Shown here: piece by piece, positions 9,212 to 62,998 of the stretch
How the letters are laid out: every line of letters starts with the position of its first letter
How positions within the stretch are numbered: position 1 is the first letter of the stretch
From: a bacterium
Lineage (GTDB): Bacteria; Sysuimicrobiota; Sysuimicrobiia; Sysuimicrobiales; Kaftiobacteriaceae
Length of the DNA stretch: 64,000 nucleotides
Reading direction: 5' to 3'
NCBI GenBank assembly: GCA_036505015.1
Contig: DASXUC010000026.1
Coordinates: 4,229 to 68,228 of the forward strand
The notes under the pieces: model-generated
Told to the model about the DNA's origin: nothing
Database searches by the model: none
Seen by the model: only the letters and a program-made list of their open reading frames with translations
Position numbers and translations under genes: made by a program

Positions 9212-10042
9212 ATGGCCGACATCCCCCCGCCGTCTGAATCGCAGCAACTGGGCAGGCGTCTGGGTCTTGTCATTCTCCTGATGGTCCTCGTCGGCGGGGT
9301 CGGCTCGTTCCTGTGGGCCATGCGGCACTTGTGGCTGCCGCCCGTGGCATCGCAGCAGGGCATCGACGTCGATCGTCTGTTCACGATCACCCTCATCGTC
9401 ACCGGGGCAGCATTCATCCTCGTGCATCTCTTCCTGGGTATCTTCGCCTGGCGGTATGCCGACCGGGGGCAAAAAGAACGCGCGTACTACTGGCACGATA
9501 ACCGCACGCTCGAGCTGACGTGGACGCTGGTGCCGGCGGCCGTGCTGGTGACGCTGATTTCGATGGGCGCCGTCGTCTGGCTGCGCGTGCACAGCGCTCC
9601 GCCAGCGGATGTGATGGTCGTGGATGTGCACGCCCAGCAGTTCGGGTGGATGTTCCGCTACCCCGGTCCGGATGGAAAGTTCGGGCGCAACGAAGGCATC
9701 CGGATGACACCGGGCAACCCGCTGGGCATCGATCCGGCGGATCCCGCGGGCGCCGACGACATCGTCGCCCGGGAACTGCACTTGATCCTTGGGCAGCCTG
9801 TACAGGTGCGGCTGTCATCGACCGATGTGCTGCACAGTTTCTTTCTGCCGAACTTCCGCGTGAAGCAGGACGTCGTGCCCGGCATGTACACGACGGCGTG
9901 GTTTGTGCCGACGGCATCCGGCAAGTTCGAGATTGCCTGCGCGGAGCTGTGCGGAGTCGGCCACTACATCATGCGCAGTCAGGTGGTCGTCGAGCCGACG
10001 CGAGCGGCGTTTGACGCGTGGCTGGCAAAACAGAAGAAGTGA
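9212..10042 (+). CDS. ctaC: Cytochrome c oxidase subunit II (CuA, no fused cytochrome c)
   Basis: Two N-terminal TM helices. Canonical CuA motif H-x34-C-x3-C-x3-H-x2-M (HSFF...CAELCGVGHYIM). Confidence 0.9.
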   Translation: MADIPPPSESQQLGRRLGLVILLMVLVGGVGSFLWAMRHLWLPPVASQQGIDVDRLFTITLIVTGAAFILVHLFLGIFAWRYADRGQKERAYYWHDNRTLELTWTLVPAAVLVTLISMGAVVWLRVHSAPPADVMVVDVHAQQFGWMFRYPGPDGKFGRNEGIRMTPGNPLGIDPADPAGADDIVARELHLILGQPVQVRLSSTDVLHSFFLPNFRVKQDVVPGMYTTAWFVPTASGKFEIACAELCGVGHYIMRSQVVVEPTRAAFDAWLAKQKK

Positions 10043-10066
10043 ATCGCGACTCGTGAATCGTGAATC
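10039..10066. repeat. Tandem heptads GTGAATC x4 (one degenerate) in the coxII-coxI gap
   Basis: GTGAATC GCGACTC GTGAATC GTGAATC. The first unit contains the coxII stop codon. Confidence 0.85.
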
Positions 10067-10100
10067 GAACTACGGTTGACCTCATGAGGGGTGCACTAGC

Positions 10101-11933
10101 ATGGCGGTGACGCACGAAGCGGCGCACGGGGAGCACGAGCACCGGCTGAGCTTCTGGAAGAAGTACGTCTTCAGCCAGGACCACAAGATCATCGGGATGC
10201 AGTACTTGATGACGTCGTTCTTCATGGCGCTGGTCGGCGGCTTCCTGGCGATGCTGATCCGGATGCAGTTGGGCTTCCCGGCGCTGAAGTTCTACTGGGC
10301 GCAGTTTCTGTTCCCCGGCGGGTTCTCGGGCGACCAGATGAAGCCGGACTTCTACCTCGCCGTCGTCACCATGCACGGCACGATCATGATCTTCTTCGTG
10401 CTCACCACGGCGTTGTCCGGCGGCTTCGGCAACCTGTTGATCCCGCTGCAGATCGGCGCGCGCGACATGGCCTTCCCGTGGCTGAACATGGTGTCGTACT
10501 GGCTGTACCCGCCGGCGATCCTCATCCTGCTCGCCTCGTTCTTCGTCACCGGAGGCGCAGCCAGCGCGGGGTGGACGTCGTATCCGCCGTTATCGGCGCT
10601 GCGCAACGCCGTGCCGGGATCCTACCTGGGGCAAACGCTGTGGCTACTCAGCCTGGCGCTGCTCATTTTGGCGTTCCTGTTCGGGTCACTGAACTACATC
10701 ACGACGGTGCTGCAGCTGCGCACGCGCGGGATGTCGATGAGCCGGCTGCCCCTGCTGACCTGGGCGCAGTTCATCACCGCCATCTTGATGCTGCTGTCGT
10801 TCCCCGTGCTGCTGGCGGCGGCGATCATGATGCTGTTCGACCGCCACCTGGGAACCAGTTTCTTCGTCCCCGGCGGTCTGGTCGTCAACGGCGTGCCGGT
10901 CTCCCACAAAGGCGGCGATCCAATCCTCTGGCAGCACCTGTTCTGGTTTCTCGGCCACCCCGAAGTGTATGTGCTGATCCTGCCGCCGATGGGCATCGTC
11001 TCCGAGGTCCTGTCGACGAACGGGCGGAAGCCGATTTTCGGCTACTTCTTCATGGTCGGCAGCCTGGCCTCAATCGCATTCCTCAGTTTCCTGGTGTGGG
11101 GACATCACATGTTCACCAGCGGTATGGATCCGCTGCTGGGCACGGCGTTCATGACCACGACCCTGCTGATCGCGGTCCCGTCGGCCATTAAGACGTTCAA
11201 CTGGCTGGCCACGCTGTGGCGGGCCAAGATCCGCTATACGTCGGCGACCCTGTTTGCGGTGGGCTTCATCTCCCTGTTCGTCACCGGCGGGCTCACCGGC
11301 ATCTTCCTGGCGTCGCCGGCGATCGACATCCACTTTCAGGACACGTTTTTCGTCGTCGCCCACTTCCACTTCGTGATGGCCAGCGCGGCCCTGTTCGGCC
11401 TGTTCGCGGGGACGTATCACTGGTTCCCCAAGATGTTCGGACGCCTGATGAACGAGCGGCTCGGCAGGATCCACTTCTGGCTGACATTTGTAGGAGTGTA
11501 CGCCACGTTCTTCCCGATGCACTTCGCGGGCACTGCGGGGATGATGCGGCGGATCTTCTCCACGCAGATGTACCAGTTTCTCCAGCCCGTCTCCGGGTTG
11601 AACGCGTTCGTCTCGATCGCGGGATTTGTGCTCGGGACGGCGCAGCTGATCTTCGCCTACAACTTCATCTACAGCGCCTTCCGCGGGGCCAAGGCCGGCG
11701 CGAATCCCTGGGAGGCGAACACCCTGGAGTGGCAGGCCCCCTCCCCGCCCCCGCACGGCAACTGGGGAGCGACCCTCCCGGTCGTCTACCGCTGGCCGTA
11801 CGACTACAGCGTTCCGGATGCCGAGGAGGACTATCTCCCGCAAACCGTTCCCCAGCGGGCGGCATCGACGGTGCAGGGAGCACCCGAAGAGGCGCCATCG
11901 CTGCACGCAAAACCGCGGGGTGAAGAAGCGTAA
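10101..11933 (+). CDS. ctaD: Cytochrome c oxidase subunit I (heme-copper oxidase, A-type)
   Basis: 610 aa. Contains WFLGHPEVYVLILP, HHMFTSG and VVAHFHFVM motifs. Confidence 0.95.
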   Translation: MAVTHEAAHGEHEHRLSFWKKYVFSQDHKIIGMQYLMTSFFMALVGGFLAMLIRMQLGFPALKFYWAQFLFPGGFSGDQMKPDFYLAVVTMHGTIMIFFVLTTALSGGFGNLLIPLQIGARDMAFPWLNMVSYWLYPPAILILLASFFVTGGAASAGWTSYPPLSALRNAVPGSYLGQTLWLLSLALLILAFLFGSLNYITTVLQLRTRGMSMSRLPLLTWAQFITAILMLLSFPVLLAAAIMMLFDRHLGTSFFVPGGLVVNGVPVSHKGGDPILWQHLFWFLGHPEVYVLILPPMGIVSEVLSTNGRKPIFGYFFMVGSLASIAFLSFLVWGHHMFTSGMDPLLGTAFMTTTLLIAVPSAIKTFNWLATLWRAKIRYTSATLFAVGFISLFVTGGLTGIFLASPAIDIHFQDTFFVVAHFHFVMASAALFGLFAGTYHWFPKMFGRLMNERLGRIHFWLTFVGVYATFFPMHFAGTAGMMRRIFSTQMYQFLQPVSGLNAFVSIAGFVLGTAQLIFAYNFIYSAFRGAKAGANPWEANTLEWQAPSPPPHGNWGATLPVVYRWPYDYSVPDAEEDYLPQTVPQRAASTVQGAPEEAPSLHAKPRGEEA

Positions 11934-12584: not shown

Positions 12585-13241
12585 GTGTCGGTGGTGGCCG
12601 TAGAGCACGAAGCGCCAGGCATGGAGCACCACGCGGCCGACCAGGCCCGCGTCCTGGCGTCCCCATGGGGAGGCGGCAAATCCCCGTTCGCCGTCGGCTG
12701 GCCGAAGCTGATGATGTGGCTGTTCCTGGTCTCCGACACGTTAACGTTCGCGGGACTACTCAGCGGCTACGGCGTGATGCGGCTGTCGCTGGGCACGTGG
12801 CCGCATCAGTCGGAGATCTTCAACATCTGGCTGGTCGGCACGATGACCTTCATCCTGATCTGCAGCAGTGCGACCATGGCCGTGGCGGTGGCCGCGGCGC
12901 GATTGGGCGACAATCGCACGGTGCTGCGCTTCCTCATGCTTACCGTCCTGGGCGGCCTGTTCTTCCTCGGCGCCCAGGCCTATGAGTGGACGCATTTCAT
13001 CCGCGAAGGGGCCCGGCTGTTTGGGAACCCATGGGGCGTGCCCCAGTTCAGCGCGACGTTTTTCATCATCACCGGGTTCCACGGCGGGCACGTGACCGGC
13101 GGGGTGATCTATCTGGCCATCACCGCGCTGCGCTGGACCCGCCGCCGGATCAAACCCGAGAGCATCGAGATCGCCGGACTGTACTGGCACTTTGTGGACC
13201 TGGTATGGGTGTTCATTTTCACGCTGCTCTACTTGATTTAG
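12585..13241 (+). CDS. ctaE: Cytochrome c oxidase subunit III (paralog 2)
   Basis: COX3 motifs (FFIITGFHGGHVTGG...LYWHFVDLVWVFIF). The start is uncertain (GTG at 12585 or ATG at 12621). The track ORF starting at 12531 overlaps the previous gene. Confidence 0.8.
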   Translation: MSVVAVEHEAPGMEHHAADQARVLASPWGGGKSPFAVGWPKLMMWLFLVSDTLTFAGLLSGYGVMRLSLGTWPHQSEIFNIWLVGTMTFILICSSATMAVAVAAARLGDNRTVLRFLMLTVLGGLFFLGAQAYEWTHFIREGARLFGNPWGVPQFSATFFIITGFHGGHVTGGVIYLAITALRWTRRRIKPESIEIAGLYWHFVDLVWVFIFTLLYLI

Positions 13242-13259
13242 CCGAGCAAGCGAGGAAGC

Positions 13260-13595
13260 ATGGAAGCGAGGAAGCATTCGGTGGAAGAACGCGGTGAAGG
13301 GCCGGAGCAGCACCAGCAGGGTGGGTACCGGATTTACGTCGTGGTGTGGTTCTGGCTGCTCGTGTTTACGTTGATCGAAATCGGGATCGTCGTCTTGGGG
13401 GTCCCGAAGTGGGCGCTGGTCAGCGGGCTATTGGTGCTGGCGATGATGAAGGCCGCCCTCATTGTTGCGTACTTCATGCACCTGCGATATGAGCGTCTGA
13501 GCATGATCTACACGGTCGTGACCCCGCTGCTGCTGGGGTTCGTCTTGTTCGCGGCCCTGGGGCCCGACGCCGTCCACGTCTTCCTCTCACGCTGA
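13260..13595 (+). CDS. Prokaryotic cytochrome c oxidase subunit IV-like small membrane protein
   Basis: 111 aa, 3 TM, with AYFMHLRYE typical of the bacterial subunit IV family. Last gene of the cox operon. Confidence 0.7.
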   Translation: MEARKHSVEERGEGPEQHQQGGYRIYVVVWFWLLVFTLIEIGIVVLGVPKWALVSGLLVLAMMKAALIVAYFMHLRYERLSMIYTVVTPLLLGFVLFAALGPDAVHVFLSR

Positions 13596-17881: not shown

Positions 17882-18931
17882 ATGAAGCTCGAGGACATTC
17901 CAGCGGATCGGCAGGCGAAATTCCGGTTCAGCCGAAAGCCGCTCCATGCGTTGAACGATATCCAGAGGAGCGCGCTCGACCAGATCAAGCACAAGATTCA
18001 GGATCAGTATGCCTATGAGGAGATCGAGTGTTTCTGCGGTCAGACGCAGGATATTCTGGTCGGCCGGTACGATCGGTACGGCCTCCCGCACTGGTCGCGG
18101 CTGTGCGGCAATTGCGGATTGATCAGGACCTCGCCCAGGCTCAGCGAAGCGAGCTACCACGATTTCTACGAACAGCACTTCGTGCAGCTGCACTACGGGA
18201 TCCCCGCCGTCGACGAGGCGTTTGCGCTCTCGCGGGTCACAATCATGAATCACCCAGCCAATGGCATGGAACTGCTGAACACGCTACGCCCGTTGGTGGA
18301 TCTGCGCGAAAGTAGGCGGGTCTTGGAGATTGGCTGCGGTGCAGGATGGACGTTGGTTCCTCTCAAAGATGCCGGGCTTGCGGTGGCCGGGTGCGATTAT
18401 GACAGCCGGCAGGTCGCACTGGGGAGGAAGCTGTTCGGGTTGGATCTCATCGCCGGCGGGGTGGAGCAGGTCAGCGCCTCGGGCCAAAAGTTCGATCTCA
18501 TCATCACGATCAACTTGCTCGAGCACATTCTCGACCTGCGCGGACTGTTGCGCCAGGCACACGATTTGCTGGATGACAATGGGCTATTCTACGTCATGAC
18601 GCCGGGTTTATTCCACTTCGTGTCGCAGATGTACCCGTCGCTCCAATACCAGCTGATGATCTACCACACCTATCTGTTCAACGAGTGGAATCTGGAATAT
18701 GTGCTCGGGGCCTGTGGATTCCAGAGGGTTCGCTGCGATCGCTTCATCACCTCAGTGTGGAGGAAGACCGCAGACGGGCGGAACCTGGCTCACGTTGACT
18801 TTCATGTCCCCGTTGTCGACGCGTTCCTGAAGCAGTACGGTGATACGAAACGACAGAGCGGCTTGGGAGCATTGAAATCTTGGACGCGCGAGCGAGGTTT
18901 GTGGAGCCGCCGATCGGATTCGAACCGATAA
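17882..18931 (+). CDS. Class I SAM-dependent methyltransferase with an N-terminal Cys4 zinc-ribbon-like motif
   Basis: VLEIGCGAGW...GCDYD motif I and post-I. CFCG...CGNCG lies upstream. GC is visibly lower (about 50-55% in sampled 60-mers). The 3' end runs 30 nt into the opposite-strand tRNA. Confidence 0.7.
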   Translation: MKLEDIPADRQAKFRFSRKPLHALNDIQRSALDQIKHKIQDQYAYEEIECFCGQTQDILVGRYDRYGLPHWSRLCGNCGLIRTSPRLSEASYHDFYEQHFVQLHYGIPAVDEAFALSRVTIMNHPANGMELLNTLRPLVDLRESRRVLEIGCGAGWTLVPLKDAGLAVAGCDYDSRQVALGRKLFGLDLIAGGVEQVSASGQKFDLIITINLLEHILDLRGLLRQAHDLLDDNGLFYVMTPGLFHFVSQMYPSLQYQLMIYHTYLFNEWNLEYVLGACGFQRVRCDRFITSVWRKTADGRNLAHVDFHVPVVDAFLKQYGDTKRQSGLGALKSWTRERGLWSRRSDSNR

Positions 18932-18978
18932 CCCCCTCATTACAAATGAGGCGCTCTACCGGGTTGAGCTACGGCGGC
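18902..18978 (-). tRNA. tRNA-Thr (anticodon UGU), CCA encoded
   Basis: Hand-folded cloverleaf: acceptor GCCGCCG/CGGCGGC, D-arm GCTC...GAGC, anticodon arm CCTCA-TTTGTAA-TGAGG, 5-nt variable loop, T-arm ATCGG-TTCGAAT-CCGAT, discriminator U plus CCA. Total 77 nt. Confidence 0.9.
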
Positions 18979-20156: not shown

Positions 20157-20184
20157 CGACGAACGACCAACGACCAACGATGGC
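20157..20184. repeat. Tandem heptads CGACCAA-type x4 in the maoC-bdhA gap
   Basis: CGACGAA CGACCAA CGACCAA CGATGGC. Confidence 0.85.
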
Positions 20185-45312: not shown

Positions 45313-45342
45313 AGTATATCTTTCTTATGCCGCAAGCGTCAA
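45313..45342 (-). promoter_or_regulatory. SigA-type promoter of greA
   Basis: Minus strand: TTGACG - 18 nt - TATACT. Confidence 0.55.
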
Positions 45343-45378
45343 GGACGCAGACGGGTCATACGTGTGAATATCTGGCGG

Positions 45379-48801: not shown

Positions 48802-48862
48802 CGATGATCCCTCCGTTCCAGTCTCAGATGAGTACCGGACGGACTTGATCGTACCACAACTA

Positions 48863-48960
48863 CAGGTGTCGGGTCTCAGGTGCCAGGTCTTCAGGTCTCA
48901 GGTCTCGGTTTTCAGGTGGTTTCATCTGAAATCTGACACCTGAAACCTGGCACCTGATTT
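48863..48960. repeat. Inverted heptad arrays (CAGGTCT units x8 / CTGAAAC-type x5) between the S58 peptidase and the ECF-S gene
   Basis: CAGGTGT CGGGTCT CAGGTGC CAGGTCT (T) CAGGTCT CAGGTCT CGGTTTT CAGGTGG ... CTGAAAT CTGACAC CTGAAAC CTGGCAC CTGATTT. Confidence 0.9.
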
Positions 48961-49909: not shown

Positions 49910-49912
49910 CGG

Positions 49913-50710: not shown

Positions 50711-50711
50711 C

Positions 50712-51335
50712 TCAGCGCTCCACGAGGGGGAACAGCGAGGGCAGGCGCGACTGCATATCGGCAATCAGCGCGTCGAGATTCGCCAGGTCCAGGGCGCCGG
50801 CATCGACCGTGAGGACCGGGCAGAGCGTGAAATTGTCGATCCATTCGGCATAGCGATCGTTCAGCTGTTCCAGGTACGCCTGGGGAATCCGCTGCTCATA
50901 ATCGCGCGCGCGGTGCCGGATGCGCTCCATCAGGGTCGGCACCGATGCGCTGAGGTAGAGCACGAGATCCGGGGGCCGCAGAAACTGCATCATGGTGTTG
51001 AACAGGTCGTAGTAACTGCGGAAGTCGCGTTCATCCATCAAACCCTGCAGGTAGAGGTTGCGCGCGAAGATCTCCGCATCCTCATAGATAGTGCGGTCCT
51101 GGATCACCGACTGCGGGGCGTGCACAATTTCCTGGTGATGCTGAAAACGCTTGCTGAGGAAGAAGACCTGCAGGTGAAAGCTCCAGCGCGGCATGTTGCC
51201 GTAGAAGTCGGGCAGGTACGGGTTCTCATCGACGACCTCATAGTACGGCGTCCAGCCGAGCCGATCGCTCAGCACGGTCGTCAAGGTGGACTTGCCCGAC
51301 CCGATATTGCCGCTGACGGCGACGAACCACTTCAC
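50712..51335 (-). CDS. Deoxynucleoside kinase (dAK/dGK family), copy 1
   Basis: P-loop GNIGSGKST and ENPYLPDFY motifs. Start refined to the GTG at 51335. The track N-terminus is repeat-encoded. Confidence 0.85.
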   Translation of the reverse strand: MKWFVAVSGNIGSGKSTLTTVLSDRLGWTPYYEVVDENPYLPDFYGNMPRWSFHLQVFFLSKRFQHHQEIVHAPQSVIQDRTIYEDAEIFARNLYLQGLMDERDFRSYYDLFNTMMQFLRPPDLVLYLSASVPTLMERIRHRARDYEQRIPQAYLEQLNDRYAEWIDNFTLCPVLTVDAGALDLANLDALIADMQSRLPSLFPLVER

Positions 51336-51345
51336 GGCAACCCCC

Positions 51346-51407
51346 CAACGACTGTTCGTCGTTGGTGGTTGATGGTTGATCGTTCGACCAACGACCAACG
51401 TCCAACG
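51346..51407. repeat. Inverted heptad arrays (NNNGGTT x4 / CGACCAA x3) between the two deoxynucleoside kinase genes
   Basis: CGTCGTT GGTGGTT GATGGTT GATCGTT | CGACCAA CGACCAA CGTCCAA. Same unit as at 20157. Confidence 0.9.
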
Positions 51408-51412
51408 GGTTA

Positions 51413-52090
51413 CTACTTCTGGACTGTCGCGGCGACATAGTGCAATATCTGCGCCAGATCCGCTTTCGAAAAGATGTCGACCTTGTCCGTATCGACGGTC
51501 AGGACCGCCACCTCATCATACGCGGGCACGAACTCCTCATAGACCTCGCACAGCCGGGCCAGGTAGTCCCGTTCGATGGCGCGCTCGAAGGGCCTGTCGC
51601 GCTGGGCGATCCGCCGCAGCAGCGTCTCCAGATCCGCCCGCAGGTAGACAACGACATCGGGGACGACCGTGGTCGGGGCCACGATCGCAAACAGCCGGTC
51701 GTAGAGGTCCAGTTCCCGTTCGTCGAGATTCATCCGTGCAAACAGCCGGTCCTTCAGGAAGATGTAGTCGCTGACCACCGAGATTCCGCTGGCGCGCCTG
51801 GCCTTGATCGCGTCCTGCTGGCGGTGGCGGCTGAGGAAGAAGAAGATCTGCGTCTGGAAGGCATAACCGCGGATGTCCTGGTAGAAGCGCAAGAGGAATG
51901 GATTCTCCTCCACCACCTCCAGGACGGGCTCGGCTCCCAGCGCATCGGCCAGCAGCCGCGTCAGCGTGGTCTTGCCGACGCCGATCGGCCCTTCCACGGC
52001 GACGTGCAGGCCCGCCGGACGCGTACCGTCCCCACGCAGGAGGACCTCCTGACTGGTCCGCGGCGGTCGGAAGGACAGCGTGGAGGTCAT
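51413..52090 (-). CDS. Deoxynucleoside kinase (dAK/dGK family), copy 2
   Basis: P-loop GPIGVGKTT and ENPFLLRFY motifs. Confidence 0.85.
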   Translation of the reverse strand: MTSTLSFRPPRTSQEVLLRGDGTRPAGLHVAVEGPIGVGKTTLTRLLADALGAEPVLEVVEENPFLLRFYQDIRGYAFQTQIFFFLSRHRQQDAIKARRASGISVVSDYIFLKDRLFARMNLDERELDLYDRLFAIVAPTTVVPDVVVYLRADLETLLRRIAQRDRPFERAIERDYLARLCEVYEEFVPAYDEVAVLTVDTDKVDIFSKADLAQILHYVAATVQK

Positions 52091-52560
52091 TCCATCACCT
52101 TGCGCACGTCTTGATCCGCCACACCCGACATCAGGTCGCGCACCACACGTCCATCAGGCAGCGTCGCGCTGGGGGCAATCTCCAGCAGGGGTTCGAGCAC
52201 AAACCGCCGCCGTGTCAGCTCCGGGTGCGGTACCGCCAGGCGCGATGTCCGGATCGTCAGGTCGCCGTACAGCAGGATGTCAATGTCGATCGTGCGGGGA
52301 CCCCAGCGCACCTCGCGCGTTCTCCCCAGACCGGCTTCCACGCTGTGCACCAGATCGAGCAGGGCATCCGGCGGCAGGATCGTGTCCACCGCCACAACCT
52401 GGTTCAGAAATCTTTTCTGGGCTTCGTGTCCGATCGGGGCGGTTTCGTAGAGCGATGAACGCGCCGCGATCCGGATGTCACCGGACGCCTCCAGAGCAGC
52501 CAGCGCTTCTTCCAGCATCGCCTGCCGGTCACCGAGGTTTGAGCCCAGACTGAGGAACAC
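52087..52560 (-). CDS. folK: 2-amino-4-hydroxy-6-hydroxymethyldihydropteridine diphosphokinase
   Basis: FLSLGSNLGDR, YETAPIG and IDIDILLYG motifs. Start is probably the GTG at 52560. The upstream 25 track codons are repeat-encoded. Confidence 0.85.
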   Translation of the reverse strand: MFLSLGSNLGDRQAMLEEALAALEASGDIRIAARSSLYETAPIGHEAQKRFLNQVVAVDTILPPDALLDLVHSVEAGLGRTREVRWGPRTIDIDILLYGDLTIRTSRLAVPHPELTRRRFVLEPLLEIAPSATLPDGRVVRDLMSGVADQDVRKVME

Positions 52561-52566
52561 GCGGAC

Positions 52567-52620
52567 GGGCCTCGGGCCTGGGGCCCGTGGGCCTCTGGCC
52601 CACGGCCTCGGGCCCATGGG
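52567..52620. repeat. Heptad/octad array of GGGCCTN units in the folB-folK junction
   Basis: GGGCCTC GGGCCTG GGGCCCGT GGGCCTCT GGCCCAC GGCCTCG GGCCCAT. Self-complementary (GGGCC/GGCCC). Confidence 0.85.
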
Positions 52621-52641
52621 TTTACTCCGCGACACGAACCA

Positions 52642-53001
52642 TCACATGCGCTGGCGACGCACCGTGACCTCTGAATAGTCGAGCGGGCCCGGAAACCGGA
52701 CGCGCAGCTTGCGGACCGAGACCGTGACGCCATGCACCCGTTCGAGTTCCAGCACGCGCCGGGCAATCGATTCCGCCAGCGATTCCAGAAGGTTGCGCGG
52801 CGGGCCCTCCATGACCTCGCGGGCGCGCGCGTACACGTCGCGGTAATCGACCGTCTGCGTCAGCTCGTCGGAGCGCCCGGCCTCGCGGAGGTCGGCGTCC
52901 AGCACCACGTCGACCACAAACTCCTGACCCTGCGCGCGCTCCTCGGCAAGTGCGCCGTGGTAGCCGTAGAACCGCATCCCCTTCAAGACGATCGTGTCCA
53001 C
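52642..53001 (-). CDS. folB: Dihydroneopterin aldolase
   Basis: FYGYHGALAEERAQGQEF and DYRDVY motifs. Start refined to the GTG at 53001. Confidence 0.85.
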   Translation of the reverse strand: MDTIVLKGMRFYGYHGALAEERAQGQEFVVDVVLDADLREAGRSDELTQTVDYRDVYARAREVMEGPPRNLLESLAESIARRVLELERVHGVTVSVRKLRVRFPGPLDYSEVTVRRQRM

Positions 53002-53008
53002 CTCGACG

Positions 53009-53623
53009 TTAGGCCAGCGCGGCCTCGACAAGGTCCAGGGCCGCGGTGCGCAGTTCGTCCGCGCGCCGCTCGAGTTCGCGCGCACGGGCGGCGGTCTGAG
53101 TGCGGTATTCCTGATCCTTGATGGACTTCAGATTGATCGCCACGTTGAGCAGCGCGCCCCGCACCGCCGCGTGCGCCACCAGCGCGGCGACGCCCACGTC
53201 GCTGACCGTGTTGGGGTTGCCGATGCGGGCGATCTCGGGGGTCAGGGCAAGGACCAGCATCGCCTGCTCGGCGGTCGTCAAGGGGACCGCGGTGGCATTC
53301 TGCAGGGCCTCCTGCAGCGCCGCCTGCCTGGCCGCTTTCTCCGGCGCAGCGTCCCGCGGCATCCGCATCGCCGCCATCACCCGATCGAACGCGTCCGCGT
53401 CGCGGTCCACGAGCGCCAGCAGCGTGTCCGCCGCCTGGTCCGCCGTGCGAACCGACTGATCGAGCAGTTCGTCGTCCGCCCCCCGTCCCATCGACAATCT
53501 GGCCACCATCGCACTGAGGCCTGCGGCGACGGCGCCCGCCAGCGCCGCGGCGCTCCCCCCTCCGGGGGTCGGCTCGGCCGAAGCCAGCCGTTCGACGAAC
53601 GTGCGCACCGGTTCGTTGATCAT
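53009..53623 (-). CDS. Formiminotetrahydrofolate cyclodeaminase-family protein (FtcD C-terminal-domain homolog)
   Basis: FVERLASAEPTPGGGSAAALAGA signature of the cyclodeaminase/cyclohydrolase family. Confidence 0.8.
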   Translation of the reverse strand: MINEPVRTFVERLASAEPTPGGGSAAALAGAVAAGLSAMVARLSMGRGADDELLDQSVRTADQAADTLLALVDRDADAFDRVMAAMRMPRDAAPEKAARQAALQEALQNATAVPLTTAEQAMLVLALTPEIARIGNPNTVSDVGVAALVAHAAVRGALLNVAINLKSIKDQEYRTQTAARARELERRADELRTAALDLVEAALA

Positions 53624-54912
53624 GAGCCCTCCCCCACCCGCGCGCGGCCGGCGCGGTAAACGATGCGGCCGCGTTTGATCACGGTGTCCACGGGATTCAC
53701 ACCAAAGTGCATCGGCAGCTCGCGGTAGTCGGCGATGTCGAGGACGATCAGATCGGCCGCCTTCCCCGTCTCGAGGCTCCCGACCTCTTCCGCCACGGCC
53801 AGCGCGTGCGCGGCGTTGATAGTGGCCCCGACGACGGCCTGGGCCGGCGTGAGTTTCATGCCCACGCAGGCCAGGGCCACCACCATCGCCATCGAGTAGG
53901 TCGGCGAGGTGCCGGGATTGAAATCCGTGCCCAGCGCGATGGCCACCCCCGCATCGAGCATCCGCCCCGCCGGAGCATAGCCCAGGCCAAGGAAGAACGC
54001 CGTCCCGGGCAGCAGCACCGCCATCGTCCCCGCCGCGGCCATCGTCCGCAGGCCGTCGTCGGATGCCATCAACAGGTGGTCCGCGGAAATTGCCTCCACC
54101 TCGGCGGCCAGGGCGGCACCGCCGAGATCCGAGAGTTCGTCGGCATGCAGCTTCCCCTCCAGCCCGGCGTCCCGCGCGGCCACGAGAATCGTCCGCGACT
54201 GTTCGGGACTGAACGCTCCCGCCTCACAGAAGACGTCACAGAACTCCGCCAGGTCCTCGTCGATGACCGCCGGGAGCATCTCGTCGATGATCAACTGCAC
54301 GTAGGCGTCTGCATCCCCGGCATACTCCGGCGGGACCGCGTGCGCCCCCAGGAACGTCGGAATCAGGTCGAGGTCATGGGTCGCCGTCAGCCGGTTGATG
54401 ACCCGCAGACACTTCAGCTCATCATCGACGGTCAGCCCGTACCCGCTTTTCGCCTCCGCCGTCGTCGTCCCGTGCGCCAGCATCGCATCCAGGCGCCGGC
54501 GCCCCAGCGCCACCAGCTCCTCCTCCCCGGCCGCACGGGTTGCATGCATCGTCGCCAGAATCCCCCCGCCGCGGCGGGCGATGTCCTGGTACGAGGCGCC
54601 GAGTAGGCGCATCTCGAACTCGCCGGCGCGCGATCCTGCGTAGACGAGATGGGTATGGGCATCGACGAATCCGGGCAGCACCACCAGACCGGCGGCGTCG
54701 ACGACCACGCAGTCGGGGGTGGGCGTCACCGCGTCCATCACGTCGACGGTCGGACCGGAGGCGACGATGACGCCGTCACCGGCCGCCACGGCTCCGTCGA
54801 CAACGAGGCCGACGTCGGCCATTCCGGCGCCGGTACGAGGTGCATCATTCTCCCCCGCCAGGGTCAGCAGCTGGGCGGCGTGCACAATGAGGAGATCGGC
54901 GCTGTATTTCAT
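53620..54912 (-). CDS. hutI: Imidazolonepropionase
   Basis: Amidohydrolase metal ligands (FVDAHTHL...) with HutI-like length and motifs. Confidence 0.9.
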   Translation of the reverse strand: MKYSADLLIVHAAQLLTLAGENDAPRTGAGMADVGLVVDGAVAAGDGVIVASGPTVDVMDAVTPTPDCVVVDAAGLVVLPGFVDAHTHLVYAGSRAGEFEMRLLGASYQDIARRGGGILATMHATRAAGEEELVALGRRRLDAMLAHGTTTAEAKSGYGLTVDDELKCLRVINRLTATHDLDLIPTFLGAHAVPPEYAGDADAYVQLIIDEMLPAVIDEDLAEFCDVFCEAGAFSPEQSRTILVAARDAGLEGKLHADELSDLGGAALAAEVEAISADHLLMASDDGLRTMAAAGTMAVLLPGTAFFLGLGYAPAGRMLDAGVAIALGTDFNPGTSPTYSMAMVVALACVGMKLTPAQAVVGATINAAHALAVAEEVGSLETGKAADLIVLDIADYRELPMHFGVNPVDTVIKRGRIVYRAGRARVGEGS

Positions 54913-54923
54913 GAACTGCGCGC

Positions 54924-55817
54924 TTATTCCATAAGTCGAGTTTCCAAGATCTGCGCTCGCTCGAAGTGTGTGAGTTTCAAGTAGTGGCGCGCGGCGTCGG
55001 TGAGGGCATCGAGTGGGATCAGACCGACGACCTCACTCTCGGCGATCTCCACCCCACGCTGGGCGGCTGCCTCACGCACGGCTTCGAACGCGCGGTGCAC
55101 CGGCGTCGTCGTGTAGTCGACGAGATTCATCGAGACCTGCGCCTGACCGGCTTCGCTCCGCACACCCATCGCCTGCACCGCGACTAGACCGCCGCTGGAC
55201 TCACGCACGGCTTTCGCGATTTCGCGCGCCACCTTCACATCATCGGTGGTGAGGTTGATGTTGTACGCGATGAGCGGCCGTCGTGCCCCGACTGCGATGG
55301 CCCCGGCGGTCGGATGCGGCGTGGGGTCTCCCACATCCGGGGCCCAGGCCGGATCCTTCAGCTTCTCGGCCAGCCCTTCGAACTCGCCCTTCCGGACATC
55401 CGGCAGGCGCCGCCGCGCGGGCCGTGTGGCCGCCTCGGCGTAGAAGAACACCGGAACGCGCAGCGTTTCCCACAACCGCGTCCCCAGCGTCCTGGCCGCC
55501 GCGACGCATTCCTCCATGCTGACGCCGGTAATCGGTACCAGCGGGATCACGTCCACCGCTCCCATCCGCGGGTGCTCCCCTCGATGCGCGGTCATATCGA
55601 TCGACGCGACGGCCACGGCGGCGGCGGCGAGCGCCGCGGACTCGACGGCGGCGAGATCTCCGACCAGCGAGATGACACAGCGGTTGTGGCTTTCGTCGGC
55701 CTGCACGTCGAGCAGCCGCACCCCGCGGACGGCCGCCACCGCGGCGGCGATCTCGTCAATCACTTCGCGGCGCCGGCCCTCGCTGAAATTGGGAACGCAC
55801 TCGACAATCTGGACCAT
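54924..55817 (-). CDS. Glutamate formimidoyltransferase (FtcD N-terminal-domain homolog)
   Basis: VECVPNFSEGRR N-terminal signature. 297 aa. Confidence 0.85.
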   Translation of the reverse strand: MVQIVECVPNFSEGRRREVIDEIAAAVAAVRGVRLLDVQADESHNRCVISLVGDLAAVESAALAAAAVAVASIDMTAHRGEHPRMGAVDVIPLVPITGVSMEECVAAARTLGTRLWETLRVPVFFYAEAATRPARRRLPDVRKGEFEGLAEKLKDPAWAPDVGDPTPHPTAGAIAVGARRPLIAYNINLTTDDVKVAREIAKAVRESSGGLVAVQAMGVRSEAGQAQVSMNLVDYTTTPVHRAFEAVREAAAQRGVEIAESEVVGLIPLDALTDAARHYLKLTHFERAQILETRLME

Positions 55818-55868
55818 GCGACAATCTGCCTTCTTCGCTGCTCCGGGATGCGCTCACCTCCGACTCAT

Positions 55869-55936
55869 GGTAGCCGGGCAGCCTGGCAGCCTGGTAGCGG
55901 AGACCGAATCGTTGGCTCCCCGGGTACCCGGCTACC
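55869..55936. repeat. 10-bp long-range inverted repeat enclosing an 8-nt tandem (GCAGCCTG x2) and a 12-nt palindrome, in the ftcD/tldD divergent gap
   Basis: GGTAGCCGGG ... CCCGGCTACC. The interior holds CAGCCTGG CAGCCTGG TAGC and CCGGGTACCCGG. Confidence 0.75.
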
Positions 55937-55968
55937 GCACTGGGATTCTGACTGTGTAGAATAGTCCC

Positions 55969-57399
55969 ATGCCGATGCTCAATGAGTCTCTGGTGGGCGA
56001 CGTGCTGGCGTTCGCGCGGCAGCGCGGCGCGGATTTCGCGGAGCTGTATGTGGAACGCTGGAAGCGCCGCGCACTGCGGGTCCTCAACGATGAAGTGAAA
56101 GAGGCCACCAGCGGTCTGGAGTACGGCGCCGGTCTGCGTCTGTTCTTCGGCGAGGAGGTCGCGTACGCGTACACCAACGATCTGACGCGCGAGGGACTGC
56201 TCGAGATCGCGGACAGCCTGACCCGATTGAAGGGCCGCTCCGGCCGGGTGGACAGCCGCGGCCGGGGAGGTCTCGATTTCCGAAAGGCGGCGGCACGCGG
56301 GCTGCATGCACCCGAGATTCCGTTCGATGAGCACGACAAAGCCTACCGGTTGGAACGGCTGCGGGAGGGCCAGGCCGGGGCGCGGGTCGCTCCGGAGGTC
56401 CGGCAGGTCGAGTCCTTCCTCATGGAGTGGGACCAGGAAGTGTTGGTCGCCAACTCCGAGGGCACCTGGACCGAAGACCGCCGCGTGCGGTCCCGACACG
56501 TGGTGCAGGCCGTCGCGCAGGATGGCACGGAAGTGCAGACAGGGTTTTACGGCCCCGGGCTGAGTGTGGGTCTGGAATTGTTCGACCGCTACCCCCCCCG
56601 CGAGGTCGGGCGCACCTCCGGGGAACAGGCGATGACCAACCTGCGGGCGAAACCGGCTCCGGCGGGCACGTTTCCGGTGATCATCGGCAATGCGTTCGGC
56701 GGCGTGCTGTTCCACGAAGCGGTCGGCCATCTGCTGGAGACGACGTCCGTGGCGAAAAAGGCCTCGGTGCTGTCCGACAAGATCGGCGAGCAGATCGCCA
56801 GCTCCGCCGTCACGTACATCGACGACGGGACCACGCCGCACGGGTGGGGCAGCAGCGAGTACGACGACGAAGGCCTGCCGGTGGAGCGAACCGTCCTCAT
56901 CGACGGCGGCGTGCTGAAAAGTTATATGGTCGACCGCTGGGGGGCCCTGCGGACCGGCTACCGCCCGACGGGCTCGGGCCGCCGGCAGAACTACACCCTG
57001 GCGCCCACGTCGCGGATGCGGAATACGTTCATCGCGCCGTCGGCGACGCCGCCGCAGAAGCTGTTTGAGATGGTGGAGATGGGCCTCTACACAAAGAGTA
57101 TGCGGGGCGGTCAGGTGAAGCCCGGCTCCGGGGAATACAACTTCGGCACGCAGGAAGCCTACATGATCCGCCACGGCCGGATCGAGGAGCCGGTGCGCGG
57201 CGCCATGCTGCTGGGGAAAGGACCGGACACCATCGCCAGAGTCGTGGCGGTGGCCAACGACCTGGCGACCGGGCCGGGAATGTGCGGCAGTCTGTCAGGT
57301 TCGATCCCGGTCGAAGTCGGACAACCGCACGTCCTCGTGTCGGAAATCGTCGTCGGAGGCGAAGCCCCGAACCCCGCGGATGGGAACGTGCTGCGATGA
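55969..57399 (+). CDS. tldD: Metalloprotease TldD
   Basis: TldD/PmbA fold with the HEAVGH metal motif. 476 aa. Confidence 0.9.
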   Translation: MPMLNESLVGDVLAFARQRGADFAELYVERWKRRALRVLNDEVKEATSGLEYGAGLRLFFGEEVAYAYTNDLTREGLLEIADSLTRLKGRSGRVDSRGRGGLDFRKAAARGLHAPEIPFDEHDKAYRLERLREGQAGARVAPEVRQVESFLMEWDQEVLVANSEGTWTEDRRVRSRHVVQAVAQDGTEVQTGFYGPGLSVGLELFDRYPPREVGRTSGEQAMTNLRAKPAPAGTFPVIIGNAFGGVLFHEAVGHLLETTSVAKKASVLSDKIGEQIASSAVTYIDDGTTPHGWGSSEYDDEGLPVERTVLIDGGVLKSYMVDRWGALRTGYRPTGSGRRQNYTLAPTSRMRNTFIAPSATPPQKLFEMVEMGLYTKSMRGGQVKPGSGEYNFGTQEAYMIRHGRIEEPVRGAMLLGKGPDTIARVVAVANDLATGPGMCGSLSGSIPVEVGQPHVLVSEIVVGGEAPNPADGNVLR

Positions 57400-59715: not shown

Positions 59716-61386
59716 TTAGGGCCTGGGGCCCTGATCAAGCATCGGAATCTTGATGTGATGCCGCCGTGCGGCGTCGATCGCCAGCGCATAGCCGGCGTCC
59801 GCGTGGCGGATGATGCCGGTGCCCGGATCGGTGGTCAGCACGCGCTCCAGTTTCTGCGCCGCGAGCTCGGTACCGTCGGCAACGCACACCTGCCCGGCAT
59901 GGATCGAGTTGCCGATTCCGACGCCGCCGCCGTGATGGACCGATACCCAGGTCGCCCCCGCGCTGGCATTGACCAGCGCGTTGAGCACCGGCCAGTCGGC
60001 CACGGCGTCTGAACCGTCCCGCATGCCTTCGGTTTCCCGGTTCGGTGAGGCAACGGATCCCGCATCGAGATGGTCGCGGCCGATCACGATCGGGGCCTGC
60101 ACTTCGCCGCGGCGCACCAGGTCATTGAAGACCAGCCCGGCCTGCGCGCGCTCTCCGTAGCCCAGCCAGCAGATGCGTGCGGGCAGCCCCTGAAACGGCA
60201 CCCGGTCTTCCGCCAGACGGATCCAGCGGGCTAGCGGTGTGTTCCCGGGAAAGAGGTCGAGCACGGCGCGATCGGTGCGCAGGATGTCGGCGGGCTGCCC
60301 GGACAGCGCCACCCAACGAAACGGCCCCTTGCCCTCGCAGAACAGGGGCCGCACGTACGCCTGCACGAACCCGGGGTAGGCGAATGCGTCCGCAAACCCC
60401 GCCGCTTTGGCCTGACCGCGGAGGTTGTTTCCGTAGTCGAACACCACGCTGCCGCCGCGTTGCATCTGCACCATCGCCGCGCAGTGCACCGCCATCGACT
60501 CCATCGAACGGCGCACGTAGTCCTCCGGCTGCTGCCGCCGCCGCTGCACCGCGTCCTCCGCGCTGAAACCGGCAGGGATGTAGCCGCCGAGGGGATCGTG
60601 AGCCGACGTCTGATCCGTGACGACGTCAAAGCGCACGCCCCGCTCAGCCAGCAGCGGGTAGACTTCCGCGGCGTTGCCCAGCAGCGCCACCGATGATGGG
60701 CGGCCGGCCTGAGCGGCGTCGTCCACCAACCGCAGTGCTTCGTCGAGATTGTCGGTCGCGTGCTCCACCCAACCAGTGGCGCGGCGCCGGTGAATCCGTG
60801 CCGGATCGGCTTCGACGATCAAGGCGACCCCCTCGTTCATCGTGACCGCCATCGGCTGAGCGCCGCCCATCCCGCCCAACCCGGCCGACAGGATCGTGCG
60901 TCCGGCCAGCGATCCGCCGAAGTGCGTCCGCGCGGCGGCCGCGAATGTCTCGTAGGTGCCTTGCAGAATTCCCTGGGTGCCGATGTAGATCCACGAGCCC
61001 GCGGTCATTTGACCGTACATCATCAGACCCATCGCCTCCAGCTCCCAGAACTTCTCCCAGGTCGCCCAGGCCGGTACCAGCATCGAATTGCTGATCAGCA
61101 CCCGCGGCGCCCATTCATGGGTGCGGAATACCCCCACAGGTTTGCCGGACTGGACGAGGAGTGATTGGTCTCCATCCAGCTCCCGCAGCGCCCGCACGAT
61201 CCCGTCGAAGGACTCCCAGTTCCGCGCCGCCTTTCCGGTGCCGCCGTAGACGATGAGATCCTCCGGCCGTTCCGCCACCTCGGGATCCAGGTTGTTCATG
61301 AGCATGCGCAGCGCCGCTTCCTGCGGCCACCCCCGGCAGGACCGCTGGGCCCCGCGGGGGGCGGAGACGCGGCGCGGCGCGGGCAT
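59716..61386 (-). CDS. hutU: Urocanate hydratase
   Basis: 556 aa from the ATG at 61386 (ATGA overlap with the hutH stop). Highly characteristic motifs ([37 protein letters not shown]). The 783-aa track ORF is an upstream read-through artefact. Confidence 0.95.
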
Positions 61387-62909
61387 CACCCGAGCCCTCC
61401 CACGACCGCTGCCGCGGCGCCGAGGACGGCGCCGGATCGCACGAGCCCGAGTGCCGCCGCGAAGTCCCCTGCCAGCACGCGGTCCTCGTCCAGCGGCGGG
61501 ATGACCGTGCGCACCGCCGCCGCGGCCGCGCGCGTGCCCAATCCCGGCCGCAGCGGGGCATGAAAGTCCAGCGCCTGGGCGGCGCAGATCAGCTCGATCC
61601 CCGTCACCTGCTGCGCGTGCTCGAGCACCTGTGCGGCCTTGCGTGCGGCGATCGTGCCCATGCTGACATGATCTTCCTGGTTCGCCGACGTCGGGATACT
61701 GTCGACGCTGGCGGGATGGGCGAGCACCTTGTTCTCCGAGACCAGAGCCGCCACCGTGTACTGCGCCAGCATGAGCCCGGAATGTAACCCGTGCCGCTTC
61801 GTCAGAAACGGCGGGAGGCCGGAGAGATGGGGATTGACGAGGCGCTCGACCCGCCGCTCCGCGATGCCGGCCAGCTCGCTGAGCGCGATGGCGAGCACGT
61901 CGAGGGCCAGGGCCACCGGCTGGCCGTGGAAGTTGCCGCCGGAGATCATGCGGTCGTGATCCGGAAACACCAGCGGGTTGTCGGTCGCCGAGTTGATCTC
62001 GATCTCCAGAACCCCGGCGACATACGCGAGCGCATCCCGCGCCGCCCCATGGACCTGGGGAATGCACCGCAGCGCGTACGCGTCCTGCAGCTTCCGGCGT
62101 TCGGACGGGCGGGCGAGGATCTCGCTGCCGTGAATCACCCGCCGCAGATTGTCCGCGCTCACGCGCTGGCCCGGATGCGGGCGCGCCGCCTGCAGCAAGG
62201 CATCGAACGCATCGGGATTCCCCACCAACGCCTCAAACGACATCGCCCCGGCCACGTCGGCGGTGCCGGCGAGGCGGCGGGCATCATCCAATGCCAGCGC
62301 GCCGATCGCCGTCATGAGCTGCGTCCCATTGATCAGCGCCAGGCCGTCCTTGCCGGTCAGCGTCGCGGGGCGAAGCTCAGCCGCGGCCAGCGCGTCGGCA
62401 CTGGACTGCCGGCGTCCGCCGGTGAGCACTTCTCCTTCGCCGATCATCGCCAGCGCCAGGTGCGCCAGCGGCGCGAGATCGCCGCTGGCCCCGACGGAGC
62501 CCTGCGCAGGGATGACCGGTACGAGGCCCCGGTTGAGCATGTCGATCAGCAGATCCAGGGTCTGGGGTTGCACGCCGGAGAAGCCGAGGGCAAGCGCGTG
62601 GGCGCGGAGCACCATCATCGCCCGCACGACGTCTTCCGCCAGCGGCGCGCCCACCCCGGCGCTGTGGCTGCGCACGATGTTGACCTGCAGCTGGGCGGAC
62701 TGCTCGGCGGAGATCCGTTCTCCGGCGAGTTCGCCTACCCCGGTCGTGATCGCGTACACCGGGGTCCCCGCGGCGACCAGGCGATCCACCATCGCCCGCG
62801 CGCGCCCGACCCGGTCCCTGGCATGAGGAGAGAGGGCAACGACCGCCCTCTCTCTGGCCACGCTCACCACGTCCTGGATTGAGAGGTGCCCTCCTAGTTG
62901 GATGCTCAA
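61386..62909 (-). CDS. hutH: Histidine ammonia-lyase
   Basis: MIO-forming GSVGASGDL motif. Probable TTG start at 62909 (LSIQLGG...). The upstream 27 track codons are repeat-encoded. Confidence 0.9.
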
Positions 62910-62912
62910 TTC

Positions 62913-62998
62913 GGTCTCAGGTCTCAGGTCCCAGGTGTCAGGTTCTGGGGATCGGGTGTCAGGTAATTCCTGAGACCTGAAACCTGACACCTGATACC
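62913..62998. repeat. Inverted heptad arrays (GGTCTCA units x8 / TGAGACC-type x4) upstream of hutH
   Basis: GGTCTCA GGTCTCA GGTCCCA GGTGTCA GGTTCTG GGGATCG GGTGTCA GGTAATT CC TGAGACC TGAAACC TGACACC TGATACC. Same unit family as at 48863. Confidence 0.9.

Follow-up and report, generated by a model that had tools for sequence, protein, structure and literature searches.

Paired arrays of tandem 7- to 9-nt units in the intergenic gaps of a Sysuimicrobiota genome

The stretch of DNA analyzed here, referred to below as the window, comprises 64,000 nt of contig DASXUC010000026.1 (assembly GCA_036505015.1), and many of the gaps between its genes carry short tandem arrays of 7- to 9-nt units, most of which are paired with an array of the reverse-complement unit. 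The neighbors of the arrays are housekeeping genes, namely cox, liv-type ABC transporter, fab, ispDF, clpC, radA, folBK, deoxynucleoside kinase (dNK) and hut genes. The gene map was obtained with a self-trained codon model and is backed by Pfam for 30 scanned window proteins, 27 of which had matches; JGI gene calls on an overlapping contig agree with it. The map assigns 88.7% of the window to coding sequence and leaves 7,255 nt (11%) without genes. A tRNA-Thr gene (anticodon TGT; 18902-18978, minus strand) is the only feature recognized by Rfam or ARAGORN, and Rfam 15 at the gathering threshold gave no other match in the window. A preliminary description of this DNA had taken the genome to be Bacillota-like; the composition is not, because the GC content of the window is 65%, and the closest genomes in a species-level collection are uncultured soil metagenome-assembled genomes (MAGs) named 'bacterium SMAG', 'Bacillati bacterium ANGP1' and 'Armatimonadetes bacterium 13_1_40CM', together with Ca. 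Calidihabitans tengchongensis, of the NCBI phylum Candidatus Sysuimicrobiota. The relatives are MAGs from soil and hot springs.

Arrays and paired elements of the window

Tandem Repeats Finder (TRF) returned arrays of period 7, 8 or 9 at all 15 start positions reported previously, with offsets of 0-15 nt; the TRF starts are 10039, 20157, 24413, 28130, 29885, 34663/34711, 37479, 40385, 41833, 46471, 48863, 51361, 52566, 55868 and 62913. An extra array that was absent from the earlier list lies at 13243-13275. When non-overlapping arrays of at least 2.7 copies were counted, 18 had a period of 7, whereas 30 shuffles that preserved dinucleotides averaged 0.77; periods 8 and 9 were likewise in excess (3 against 0.5, and 7 against 0.37, respectively). 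Sixteen of the 18 period-7 arrays are located in the non-coding 11%, the exceptions overlapping the 3' ends of open reading frames (ORFs), and 16 of the 40 gaps of at least 30 nt hold an array of period 7, 8 or 9. The preliminary description had considered an artefact of assembly. We conclude that the arrays are real sequence, because they were found in the independent JGI metagenome contig L001 and related arrays recur in 5-9 independent contigs of a sister species. L001 matches window positions 43855-56297 at 99.9% identity and carries the identical set of six arrays, except that a single 7-nt unit in the 51.4-kb array is the sole indel in 12.4 kb; the arrays of the sister species are identical across 5-9 independent ENA/JGI/Logan assemblies.

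Inverted partners are present at 11 of the 15 loci (24413, 28130, 29886, 37479, 40385, 41833, 48863, 51346, 52566, 55868 and 62913), which agrees with the earlier statement that most arrays are paired, and the paired loci fold more stably than dinucleotide shuffles on at least one strand, with z-scores of about −3 to −10. A GGGCCTN pair (24413-24512; ΔG −70, z −3.8) extends from the TAG stop codon of an ABC-transporter substrate-binding-protein gene toward the downstream permease gene, a gap that is a classic position of repetitive extragenic palindromic (REP) sequences. Five copies of CGTTCRT and three of AACCAYG (28130-28197; z −2.6/−3.4) fill the 90 nt that separate a FabH-like from an acyl-CoA synthetase gene. 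Between ispDF and a small ORF, 3.7 copies of GGGGAAC and 4.1 copies of CTGTTCC (37479-37560; z −4.4/−5.1) make a stem with 6 bp and one mismatch per heptamer; the upstream arm (37528-37560) encodes residues ~385-395 of IspDF and the stop codon, the YgbB domain ending at residue 384 of 395. The genes for RadA and a 131-aa ORF converge on a GGGATTN/AATCCCN pair (40385-40453; z −8.1), at whose center (40397-40421) lies a terminator-like hairpin with a T-rich tail. In the clpC/radA gap the units are 9-mers, with 6.4 copies of the sense unit GCGATAANN and 2.7 copies of TATCGCNNN (41827-41986; z −4.5/−5.9); these arms, 90% complementary over 30 nt, bracket a canonical terminator (41866-41891, minus strand) that has orthologs in relatives.

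Directly after the TAA stop codon of an S58 peptidase gene, 7.7 copies of CAGGTNT and 4.6 copies of ACCTGNN form the element at 48863-48957 (z −10.2), which ends at an extended −10-like box upstream of the leader of an ECF-transporter gene. The same unit family makes up the pair at 62913-62998 (z −5.0), after the stop codon of a 213-aa ORF and upstream of hutH, and the two elements are 81% identical over their length. A pair of sense CGTTGGT and ACCAACG arrays separates the two dNK genes (51346-51407; z −4.5) and is the site of the one-heptamer difference from L001, and GGGCCNN arrays form a compact hairpin in the gap between folB and folK (HPPK; 52566-52616; z −3.2/−5.5). Two further pairs occupy divergent gaps. 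That between the TetR and MoaA genes consists of 9-mers, 4.6 copies of GTCTCCNCC and 4.2 copies of GGAGNAGAC (29886-29982; z −6.1), has the C-rich arm first, the reverse of the usual polarity, and ends shortly before a TATAAT box; that between the TldD and FTCD genes consists of the 8-mers GGCAGCCT and GGCTACCC (55868-55936) and adjoins an extended −10-like box.

The four unpaired loci are single arrays at 10039, 20157 and 34663/34711 and an array at 46471 within the 3' end of an ORF. GTGAATC is repeated 4.1 times (10039-10067, plus strand; z −1.7) without an inverted partner in the 58-nt gap between the genes for cytochrome oxidase subunits II and I (coxB and coxA), the upstream TGA stop codon being located in the first unit. 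Sense CGTTGGT (3.4 copies; 20157-20180, minus strand) separates an SDR gene from a MaoC dehydratase gene and is located between the stop codon of the one and the ribosome-binding site of the other. The locus at 34663-34743 (minus strand) holds two unrelated single arrays, 2.1 copies of GGCCTGG (34663-34677) and 4.7 copies of GTCACGA (34711-34743), the latter overlapping the stop codon of the SpoU methylase gene, and has no hairpin (z positive). A GGNCCCN-type array (46471-46512, minus strand) belongs to a 316-aa ORF without a Pfam domain; positions 46464-46512 encode its variable C-terminal tail, and orthologs align only to residues 1-302/308. The extra array at 13243-13275 (plus strand) consists of 4.1 copies of the 8-mer CGAGGAAG, likewise single, and covers an 18-nt intercistronic gap together with the next start codon. 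This array and a CACGAGG array at 12790-12821 of the related locus L082 are both single, have Shine-Dalgarno-like units, lie in very short gaps and overlap the next start codon; their copy number could alter the dosage or spacing of ribosome-binding sites.

An arm typically has about four units (range 2.7-7.7), and the lengths of the two arms are matched at this number. Each unit combines 5-6 fixed with 1-3 free positions, as in GGGAAC-N, GGGCCT-N, CAGGT-NT, GCGATAA-NN and GTCTCC-NCC, and a heptamer of the stem has about six pairs followed by a mismatch or a G-U pair. Among 76 arrays of the clade, 40 have a reverse-complement partner within 160 nt, with spacers of 0-66 nt. The arms are about equally complementary in every in-phase register (0.81/0.80/0.81/0.79 at 37479), so that they are homogenized arrays of one unit and not mirror copies, and the array hairpins can pair in several registers. 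Mirror-copy arms were rejected as a general rule, as one register stands out only at 41827-41986 (0.90 versus 0.80 or less). The elements also have a polarity. Of 23 paired elements compared in the window and its relatives, 20 have the higher G content in the 5' arm, whichever strand is read, and the canonical terminators of the clade have the same 5' G-rich orientation. All three exceptions are in divergent gaps, where little read-through would be expected from the flanking genes. The idea that each unit carries a stop codon, three units together closing every frame, was abandoned on inspection; it fits GTGAATC, TCGTGAC, GGGATTA and GCGATAA and fails for GGGAACA, GGGCCTN and CGTTGGT.

The elements start at, or within ~15 nt of, the stop codons of their housekeeping neighbors. 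Most follow stop codons within operons; one is in a convergent gap (radA/131-aa ORF) and two are in divergent gaps. The placement resembles that of REP sequences and bacterial interspersed mosaic elements (BIMEs), as had been proposed: directly after stops and in co-directional, convergent and divergent gaps. A canonical terminator, with stem and T-tract, forms the center of two elements (40397-40421 and 41866-41891). The arrays themselves cannot be read as intrinsic (Rho-independent) terminators, given that they lack U-tracts while the true terminators of the window have them. In several cases the end of an element directly adjoins an extended −10-like box belonging to the downstream gene. 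Boxes of this type (TGnTAnnnT or TATAAT) directly downstream of hairpins were seen at 29983-30020, 48802-48862 and 55937-55968; they have no obvious −35 sequence, and the hairpins stand in its place.

The earlier conclusion that the arrays are not cryptic coding periodicity holds, the period not being a multiple of three, yet the ends of three coding sequences, with the final residues and the stop codon, are made up of array sequence: those of IspDF, the 316-aa ORF and hutU (urocanase), the tail of the last of these, QGPRP (59716-59735), corresponding to two GGCCCNN units. The units are translated as arbitrary tails, and predicted gene ends in this lineage therefore depend on the array present. 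A CRISPR-like reading was ruled out because there are no spacers. Phase-variable (contingency) simple sequence repeats were rejected as well, the neighbors being housekeeping genes and the copy numbers identical in 5-9 assemblies of one population.

The corresponding gaps in related genomes

The relatives are represented by fragments of ~20 kb, and ~15 related contigs share synteny around 41-63 kb of the window. In about ten related genomes, syntenic gaps were found to lack the hairpin or to hold a single-armed hairpin, a double-armed hairpin or another unit. In the gap between the dNK genes, the CGTTGGT hairpin of the window is replaced by four copies of GTTTCCSC in L002 and L092 and by 4.6 copies of CACGAGG in L082 and L093; L003 and L010-L012 have nothing at this site, and L004 and L005, which lack the second dNK gene, have 2.9 copies of ATTCACC after the single one. 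The gap between the S58 peptidase and ECF-transporter genes, with CAGGTNT in the window, contains GGGATCAGA in L002, GCGATAAGA in L014, one TATCGC arm in L092 and GGGGATT in L004 and L005, and is empty in L003, L006, L007 and L009. The hutU-ASCH gap is only 11 nt long in the window and bears an AGGTCGT/CCTACGA hairpin in L082-L091.

In the clpC-radA gap of the window, GCGATAANN arms of 6.4 and 2.7 copies surround the orthologous terminator (GGAGGGCCCG...CGGGNCC followed by a T-tract). The same unit is present in 3.3 and 3.7 copies in L092, GGGGAAC takes its place in L002 and GGGATCAA in L093, and L004 and L005 have only a 5' CGGGAACG array. The canonical terminator inside the element is found in L002, L092 and L093 as well. 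Conservation of the terminator while the flanking arms change fits outward growth around a pre-existing hairpin. At this locus in L092 (11236-14224; ClpC 98% identical) the called radA starts ~1.6 kb after clpC and bears the intein-splicing domain PF14890, which is not found in the window radA.

Differences were also detected between very close genomes. L004 and L005 are ~94% identical; a 106-nt 9-mer hairpin is present in L005 only, together with an 11-nt local duplication, and the two further differ by an 8/10-nt unit and by the unit family at the site between the ECF-transporter gene and coaX. In L082 and L014 the 9-mer unit CAATCTNCC resembles the adjoining conserved flank ATTCTACAC, a likeness that suggests local amplification. 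The sites, permissive and adjacent to stop codons, stay fixed, whereas the arrays that occupy them are subject to rapid turnover.

The preliminary description had noted that units vary by locus and that several recur, and both points were borne out by the TRF units and by a composition-matched shuffle test, in which 39 elements gave 29 pairs of units within one mismatch, compared with 5.5 ± 2.3 for shuffled units. This test was used in place of single linkage, since the heptamer 'family' of 26 arrays chained together by the latter is an artefact of the small sequence space. Genome-specific families were rejected, units being shared in 8.6% of within-genome and 6.4% of between-genome comparisons (permutation p = 0.18).

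Array richness is patchy: the window, L002, L004, L005, L014, L082, L092 and L093 are rich in arrays, and the more distant relatives L003 and L006-L013 have few or none. Inverted pairs of 7- to 8-mer arrays were met by chance, in loci retrieved with the dNK query, in the unrelated WOR-3 (L047, 9171-9285; L050, 8825-8889) and in Herpetosiphonaceae (L022, 7507-7695; L039, 8306-8372). The Myxococcota loci from the same query had no inverted pairs and at most one period-7 array per locus, and two Thermus loci from it had no period-7 arrays. Inverted tandem arrays seem to be widespread but patchy across phyla.

Conserved leaders were noticed as well. One of them (..GTCCGTCCGGTACTC..GAGACTGGAACGGAGGGA..ATG; 48802-48850, minus strand) precedes the gene for the ECF-transporter S component, which itself precedes coaX. 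In the orthologs of L002-L009, L014, L092 and L093 the outer helix is kept and the middle varies, in L004 to the point of accommodating a palindromic insertion of 72 nt. The sequence resembles a small riboswitch or leader and might have to do with pantothenate; Rfam gave no match for 48802-48850. The greA leader (45227-45378, minus strand), conserved in relatives, has promoter-like TTGACG/TATACT sequences followed by a terminator-like hairpin (GCTGAGGGC..GCCCTCAGTTTTT) and, in relatives, a second hairpin (GGGGGCGCTGTAGG..CCTACGGTGTTTT), an arrangement that suggests control by attenuation. The ~300 nt upstream of clpC (44439-44743, minus strand) contain the blocks GCAGGAGGGA.CTCCGCC..GCAGAA.TCGTAGG and GGCGGAGAGGAGGACG in all relatives, including those free of arrays, and may be a structured leader.

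Kinship with known repeat classes

The inverted pairing, which the preliminary description had considered undescribed, has precedents: inverted heptamer pairs are known in Xanthomonas (PMC4692102) and three paired classes in Geobacter metallireducens (PMC2700814). Thus, of the objection that an existing family with this architecture might already cover the arrays, the part concerning architecture stands; the sequences themselves fall under no named family or mechanism. Rfam contributed nothing, the sole result of an E-value scan of 40300-53000 being miRNA-hairpin matches to the 48.8-kb element that lie below threshold and are spurious. None of the window units shares a consensus with GTTGCTYN, TCTCCGTS[Y], MTYCTGA or GGGAATC, although GTCTCCNCC and GTGAATC/GGGATTN are loosely similar, and the kinship with the described paired-array classes is consequently one of architecture only. 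What the window adds is a new phylum in which a known architecture occurs; by sequence it belongs to no named family.

The Geobacter arrays are among the closest known. Aklujkar et al. (2009) described three classes paired on opposite strands in G. metallireducens, with 8-, 9- and 7-mers (GTTGCTYN, TCTCCGTS[Y] and MTYCTGA) in 3-5 units, separated by a variable spacer, located in intergenic or intercistronic positions such as proB-proA and absent from a close relative, along with 49 single-orientation elements of four heptamers (GGACCGG); the pairs were guessed, without tests, to be sites for global regulators of the IHF/HU type (PMC2700814). Both genomes have several unit classes, opposite-strand pairs, placement in gaps and single-orientation arrays. 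They differ in phylum and in units, with only a loose resemblance of GTCTCCNCC to TCTCCGTSY, and the bracketing of terminators and the swapping of units between relatives, both seen in the clade of the window, do not figure in that account of Geobacter.

Xanthomonas genomes carry ~186 GGGAATC arrays each, ~90% of them intergenic and near ORF ends, and at 70-75 of these sites two arrays converge as an inverted pair whose G-rich arm comes first (Rehm 2015; PMC4692102). Positions are conserved between species while length and sequence vary (PMC4692102; PMC4679880), and the arrays are under-represented in divergent gaps, have no link to surface or virulence genes and were assigned no function (PMC4692102). 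The window shares the intergenic location near ORF ends, the inverted pairs with the G-rich arm first, the conservation of position with varying length and sequence, the scarcity in divergent gaps and the want of any tie to surface or virulence genes. Unlike Xanthomonas, where one unit dominates a genome, it has many units in 64 kb, and the focus of that study, G-quadruplexes, is inapplicable to about half of them.

The consensus of STRR1, one of the cyanobacterial short tandemly repeated repetitive (STRR) sequences, is CCCCA(A/G)T. Only the unit of 40385-40453 (GGGATTN, equivalent to AATCCCN) resembles it. In the accounts given in PMC4692102 and PMC4679880, the STRR sequences (Mazel 1990) are tandem, intergenic and lineage-specific heptamers, and inverted pairing is rare in Nostoc according to Rehm et al. 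(PMC4692102). The window has tandem, intergenic, over-represented heptamers in common with them; on the other hand, its host belongs to Ca. Sysuimicrobiota and is no cyanobacterium, most of its units are unrelated to STRR1-3, and inverted pairing is the rule. More generally, heptanucleotides are, as reported in the same two sources, the most abundant class of long simple sequence repeats in many prokaryotes, for which polymerase slippage was proposed (Mrázek 2007; PMC4679880, PMC4692102). The window has the features of that class, tandem 5-11-nt units beyond chance expectation (18 period-7 arrays versus 0.77) and units that are not a multiple of three outside coding sequence (16 of 18 in the non-coding 11%).

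The arms of the window elements, being tandem 7- to 9-mers that are equally complementary in all in-phase registers, differ from REP sequences. REP units are single imperfect palindromes of 20-40 nt that have a conserved GTAG end and are mobilized by REP-associated tyrosine transposases (RAYTs), and at malE-malF of E. coli a REP sequence stabilizes mRNA 3' ends and causes partial termination. REPs, BIMEs and REPINs resemble the window elements in being extragenic, in following stop codons or occupying co-directional gaps, in forming inverted doublets that make long imperfect hairpins, and in having several families per genome. In the window and its relatives, ends of the GTAGTT/AACTAC type are confined to the GCGATAANN family and a handful of other elements, and no RAYT was seen in the 30 scanned window proteins or the Pfam annotation of the related loci.

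Possible origin and effect of the elements

The elements are taken here to be neither coding elements nor contingency loci nor sequence-specific operators. Our preferred reading, to which we give a probability of roughly 0.45, so that it is held tentatively, is that they are slippage-driven, hairpin-forming intergenic repeats of the STRR type with a REP-like location at mRNA 3' ends. Most elements consist of two inverted arrays of about four units each, such that either DNA strand and the mRNA can fold with about one mismatch per unit; they occupy the few permissive gaps of an 89%-coding genome and can extend or bracket the terminator hairpin of a gene. The reading is favored by the intergenic excess of period-7 arrays, the stable folds of 11 loci, the homogenized arms, the whole-unit differences between close genomes, the position next to stop codons of housekeeping genes, the terminator kept at clpC-radA, the changing or missing units in syntenic gaps, the likeness of unit and flank in L082 and L014, and the polarity, as well as by the slippage proposed by Mrázek and the conserved positions in Xanthomonas. 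Replication slippage would add or remove whole units within an arm, and the difference of one whole unit between near-identical strains is the pattern expected from slippage. The partner arm may arise when the flank of a hairpin is copied to the other side by intrastrand template switching, and a clade-wide pool of favored units may spread among sites. Template switching at quasi-palindromes is an established mutational mechanism in E. coli. In the transcript, the 3' or intercistronic stem-loops may block 3' exonucleases; alternatively, they may act as a second, U-tract-independent stop, that is, a back-up terminator for read-through transcripts.

Several observations weigh against this reading. 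Slippage is not fast, since the arrays are stable across independent assemblies of one population. Only at 41827 do the two arms mirror each other unit by unit, and there is no direct sign of template switching. Gradual in-situ change hardly explains wholesale replacement such as that of GGGACTN in L004 by CGGGAACG at the same site in L005, or the occurrence of the 9-mer GCGATAANN at three non-orthologous sites. As to an effect on RNA, some elements lie in divergent promoter gaps, where a 3'-end function is not needed; no T-run follows the 3' arm of any array hairpin in the window, and canonical terminators with U-tracts do exist in the same genome. In 17 comparisons the sense strand was the more stable only 11 times, with 61 G-U pairs in the sense and 50 in the antisense orientation, and no clear strand-specific RNA signature is seen.

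One could envisage instead that the elements are non-autonomous mobile hairpins resembling REPINs or miniature inverted-repeat transposable elements, which are mobilized in trans by a transposase encoded elsewhere and home to hairpins or terminators after stop codons, with lineages of units competing for sites. We consider this unlikely, but it accounts better than slippage for the spread of families and for wholesale replacement at fixed sites. The unit families are real (29 pairs versus 5.5 ± 2.3), GCGATAANN recurs at its three unrelated sites, and the CAGGTNT elements at 48863 and 62913 retain their 81% identity. Elements are present or absent at tiny gaps, as between hutU and ASCH (window versus L082-L091) and in the case of the 106-nt hairpin that L005 has and L004 lacks, and their patchiness among close lineages is like that of Xanthomonas and of G. 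metallireducens versus G. sulfurreducens. In addition, ...CGTAGTT at the end or AACTACG at the start of several elements is reminiscent of the GTAG motif of REPs. Mobility is at odds with the finding that one family has different centers at different sites, and a unit insertion could not yield the situation at clpC-radA, where the terminator stays while both arms change. Target-site duplication is not consistent: the geometry of the 11-nt duplication in L004/L005 is unlike a standard one, and the other sites have none. Neither the 30 window proteins scanned with Pfam nor the domains listed for the related loci, together 64 kb and fragments of ~20 kb, include a transposase or RAYT (Y1_Tnp) domain, sharing of families within genomes (8.6%) is not above that between genomes (6.4%; p = 0.18), and single-arm arrays are common.

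At least as doubtful is a purely neutral origin, in which slippage-prone heptamers beyond the reach of mismatch repair pile up wherever selection allows and have no function as DNA or RNA. Such debris would leave the unit sequence unconstrained, as it is; several relatives manage without elements in the same gaps, no clear sense-strand RNA signal is seen (11 of 17; G-U 61 versus 50), every type of gap is occupied, divergent ones included, and arrays spill into 3' coding ends as arbitrary tails. Pure slippage, however, does not make a reverse-complement partner, which is present at 11 of 15 window loci and for 40 of 76 arrays of the clade. The matched arm lengths of ~4 units, the strongly non-random polarity (20 of 23) and the repeated filling of the same gaps in different lineages likewise argue against neutrality.

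An improbable but broader proposal is that an undescribed, structure-targeting process installs and replaces matched repeat arms around terminator hairpins just after stop codons, drawing on a clade-wide pool of 7- to 9-nt units. Its agent would be either a new class of non-autonomous hairpin element or hairpin-templated repeat extension, and it would be common to STRR, Xanthomonas, Geobacter, WOR-3 and Herpetosiphonaceae.

It is very improbable that the elements are DNA-binding sites for nucleoid-associated or global regulatory proteins, with tandem half-sites on both strands recruiting oligomers. The architecture is identical to that of the Geobacter class 1-3 'global regulator sites' (PMC2700814), the 5-6 conserved and 1-3 free positions of a unit are like spaced recognition sites, and some elements adjoin −10 boxes. 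Nevertheless, the 14 TRF consensus units among 15 elements would need a comparable number of cognate proteins, units are freely swapped at a given gene between relatives, most elements follow stop codons inside operons instead of lying in promoters, and the Geobacter proposal is itself without tests. Finally, G-quadruplex or i-motif repeats acting on transcription or translation can be given hardly any credence: GGGGAAC, GGGCCTN and GGGATTN do have G3-4 runs every 7 nt that create G3N4 x4 motifs, and GGGNATC-type repeats of Xanthomonas and Nostoc fold as G-quadruplexes in vitro, but about half of the families lack a G-run (CAGGTNT, CGTTGGT, GTCACGA, GTGAATC, GCGATAANN and GTCTCCNCC), a paired C-rich arm favors the duplex or hairpin, and Rehm et al. 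found no regulatory role (PMC4692102).

Reports of tandem heptamer arrays in bacterial genomes go back to 1990, and those of their general over-representation to 2007. With the present series the arrays are also known from Sysuimicrobiota, a soil phylum that has hardly been studied. The series adds comparative constraints as well: the arms change around a terminator that is conserved, sites stay fixed while their units differ, and the arms follow a rule of polarity. Slippage, mobile elements and regulator sites thereby become testable alternatives. The arrays also affect gene calling in MAGs of this kind, in that they give proteins arbitrary tails at the C-terminus and can displace the predicted starts and stops.

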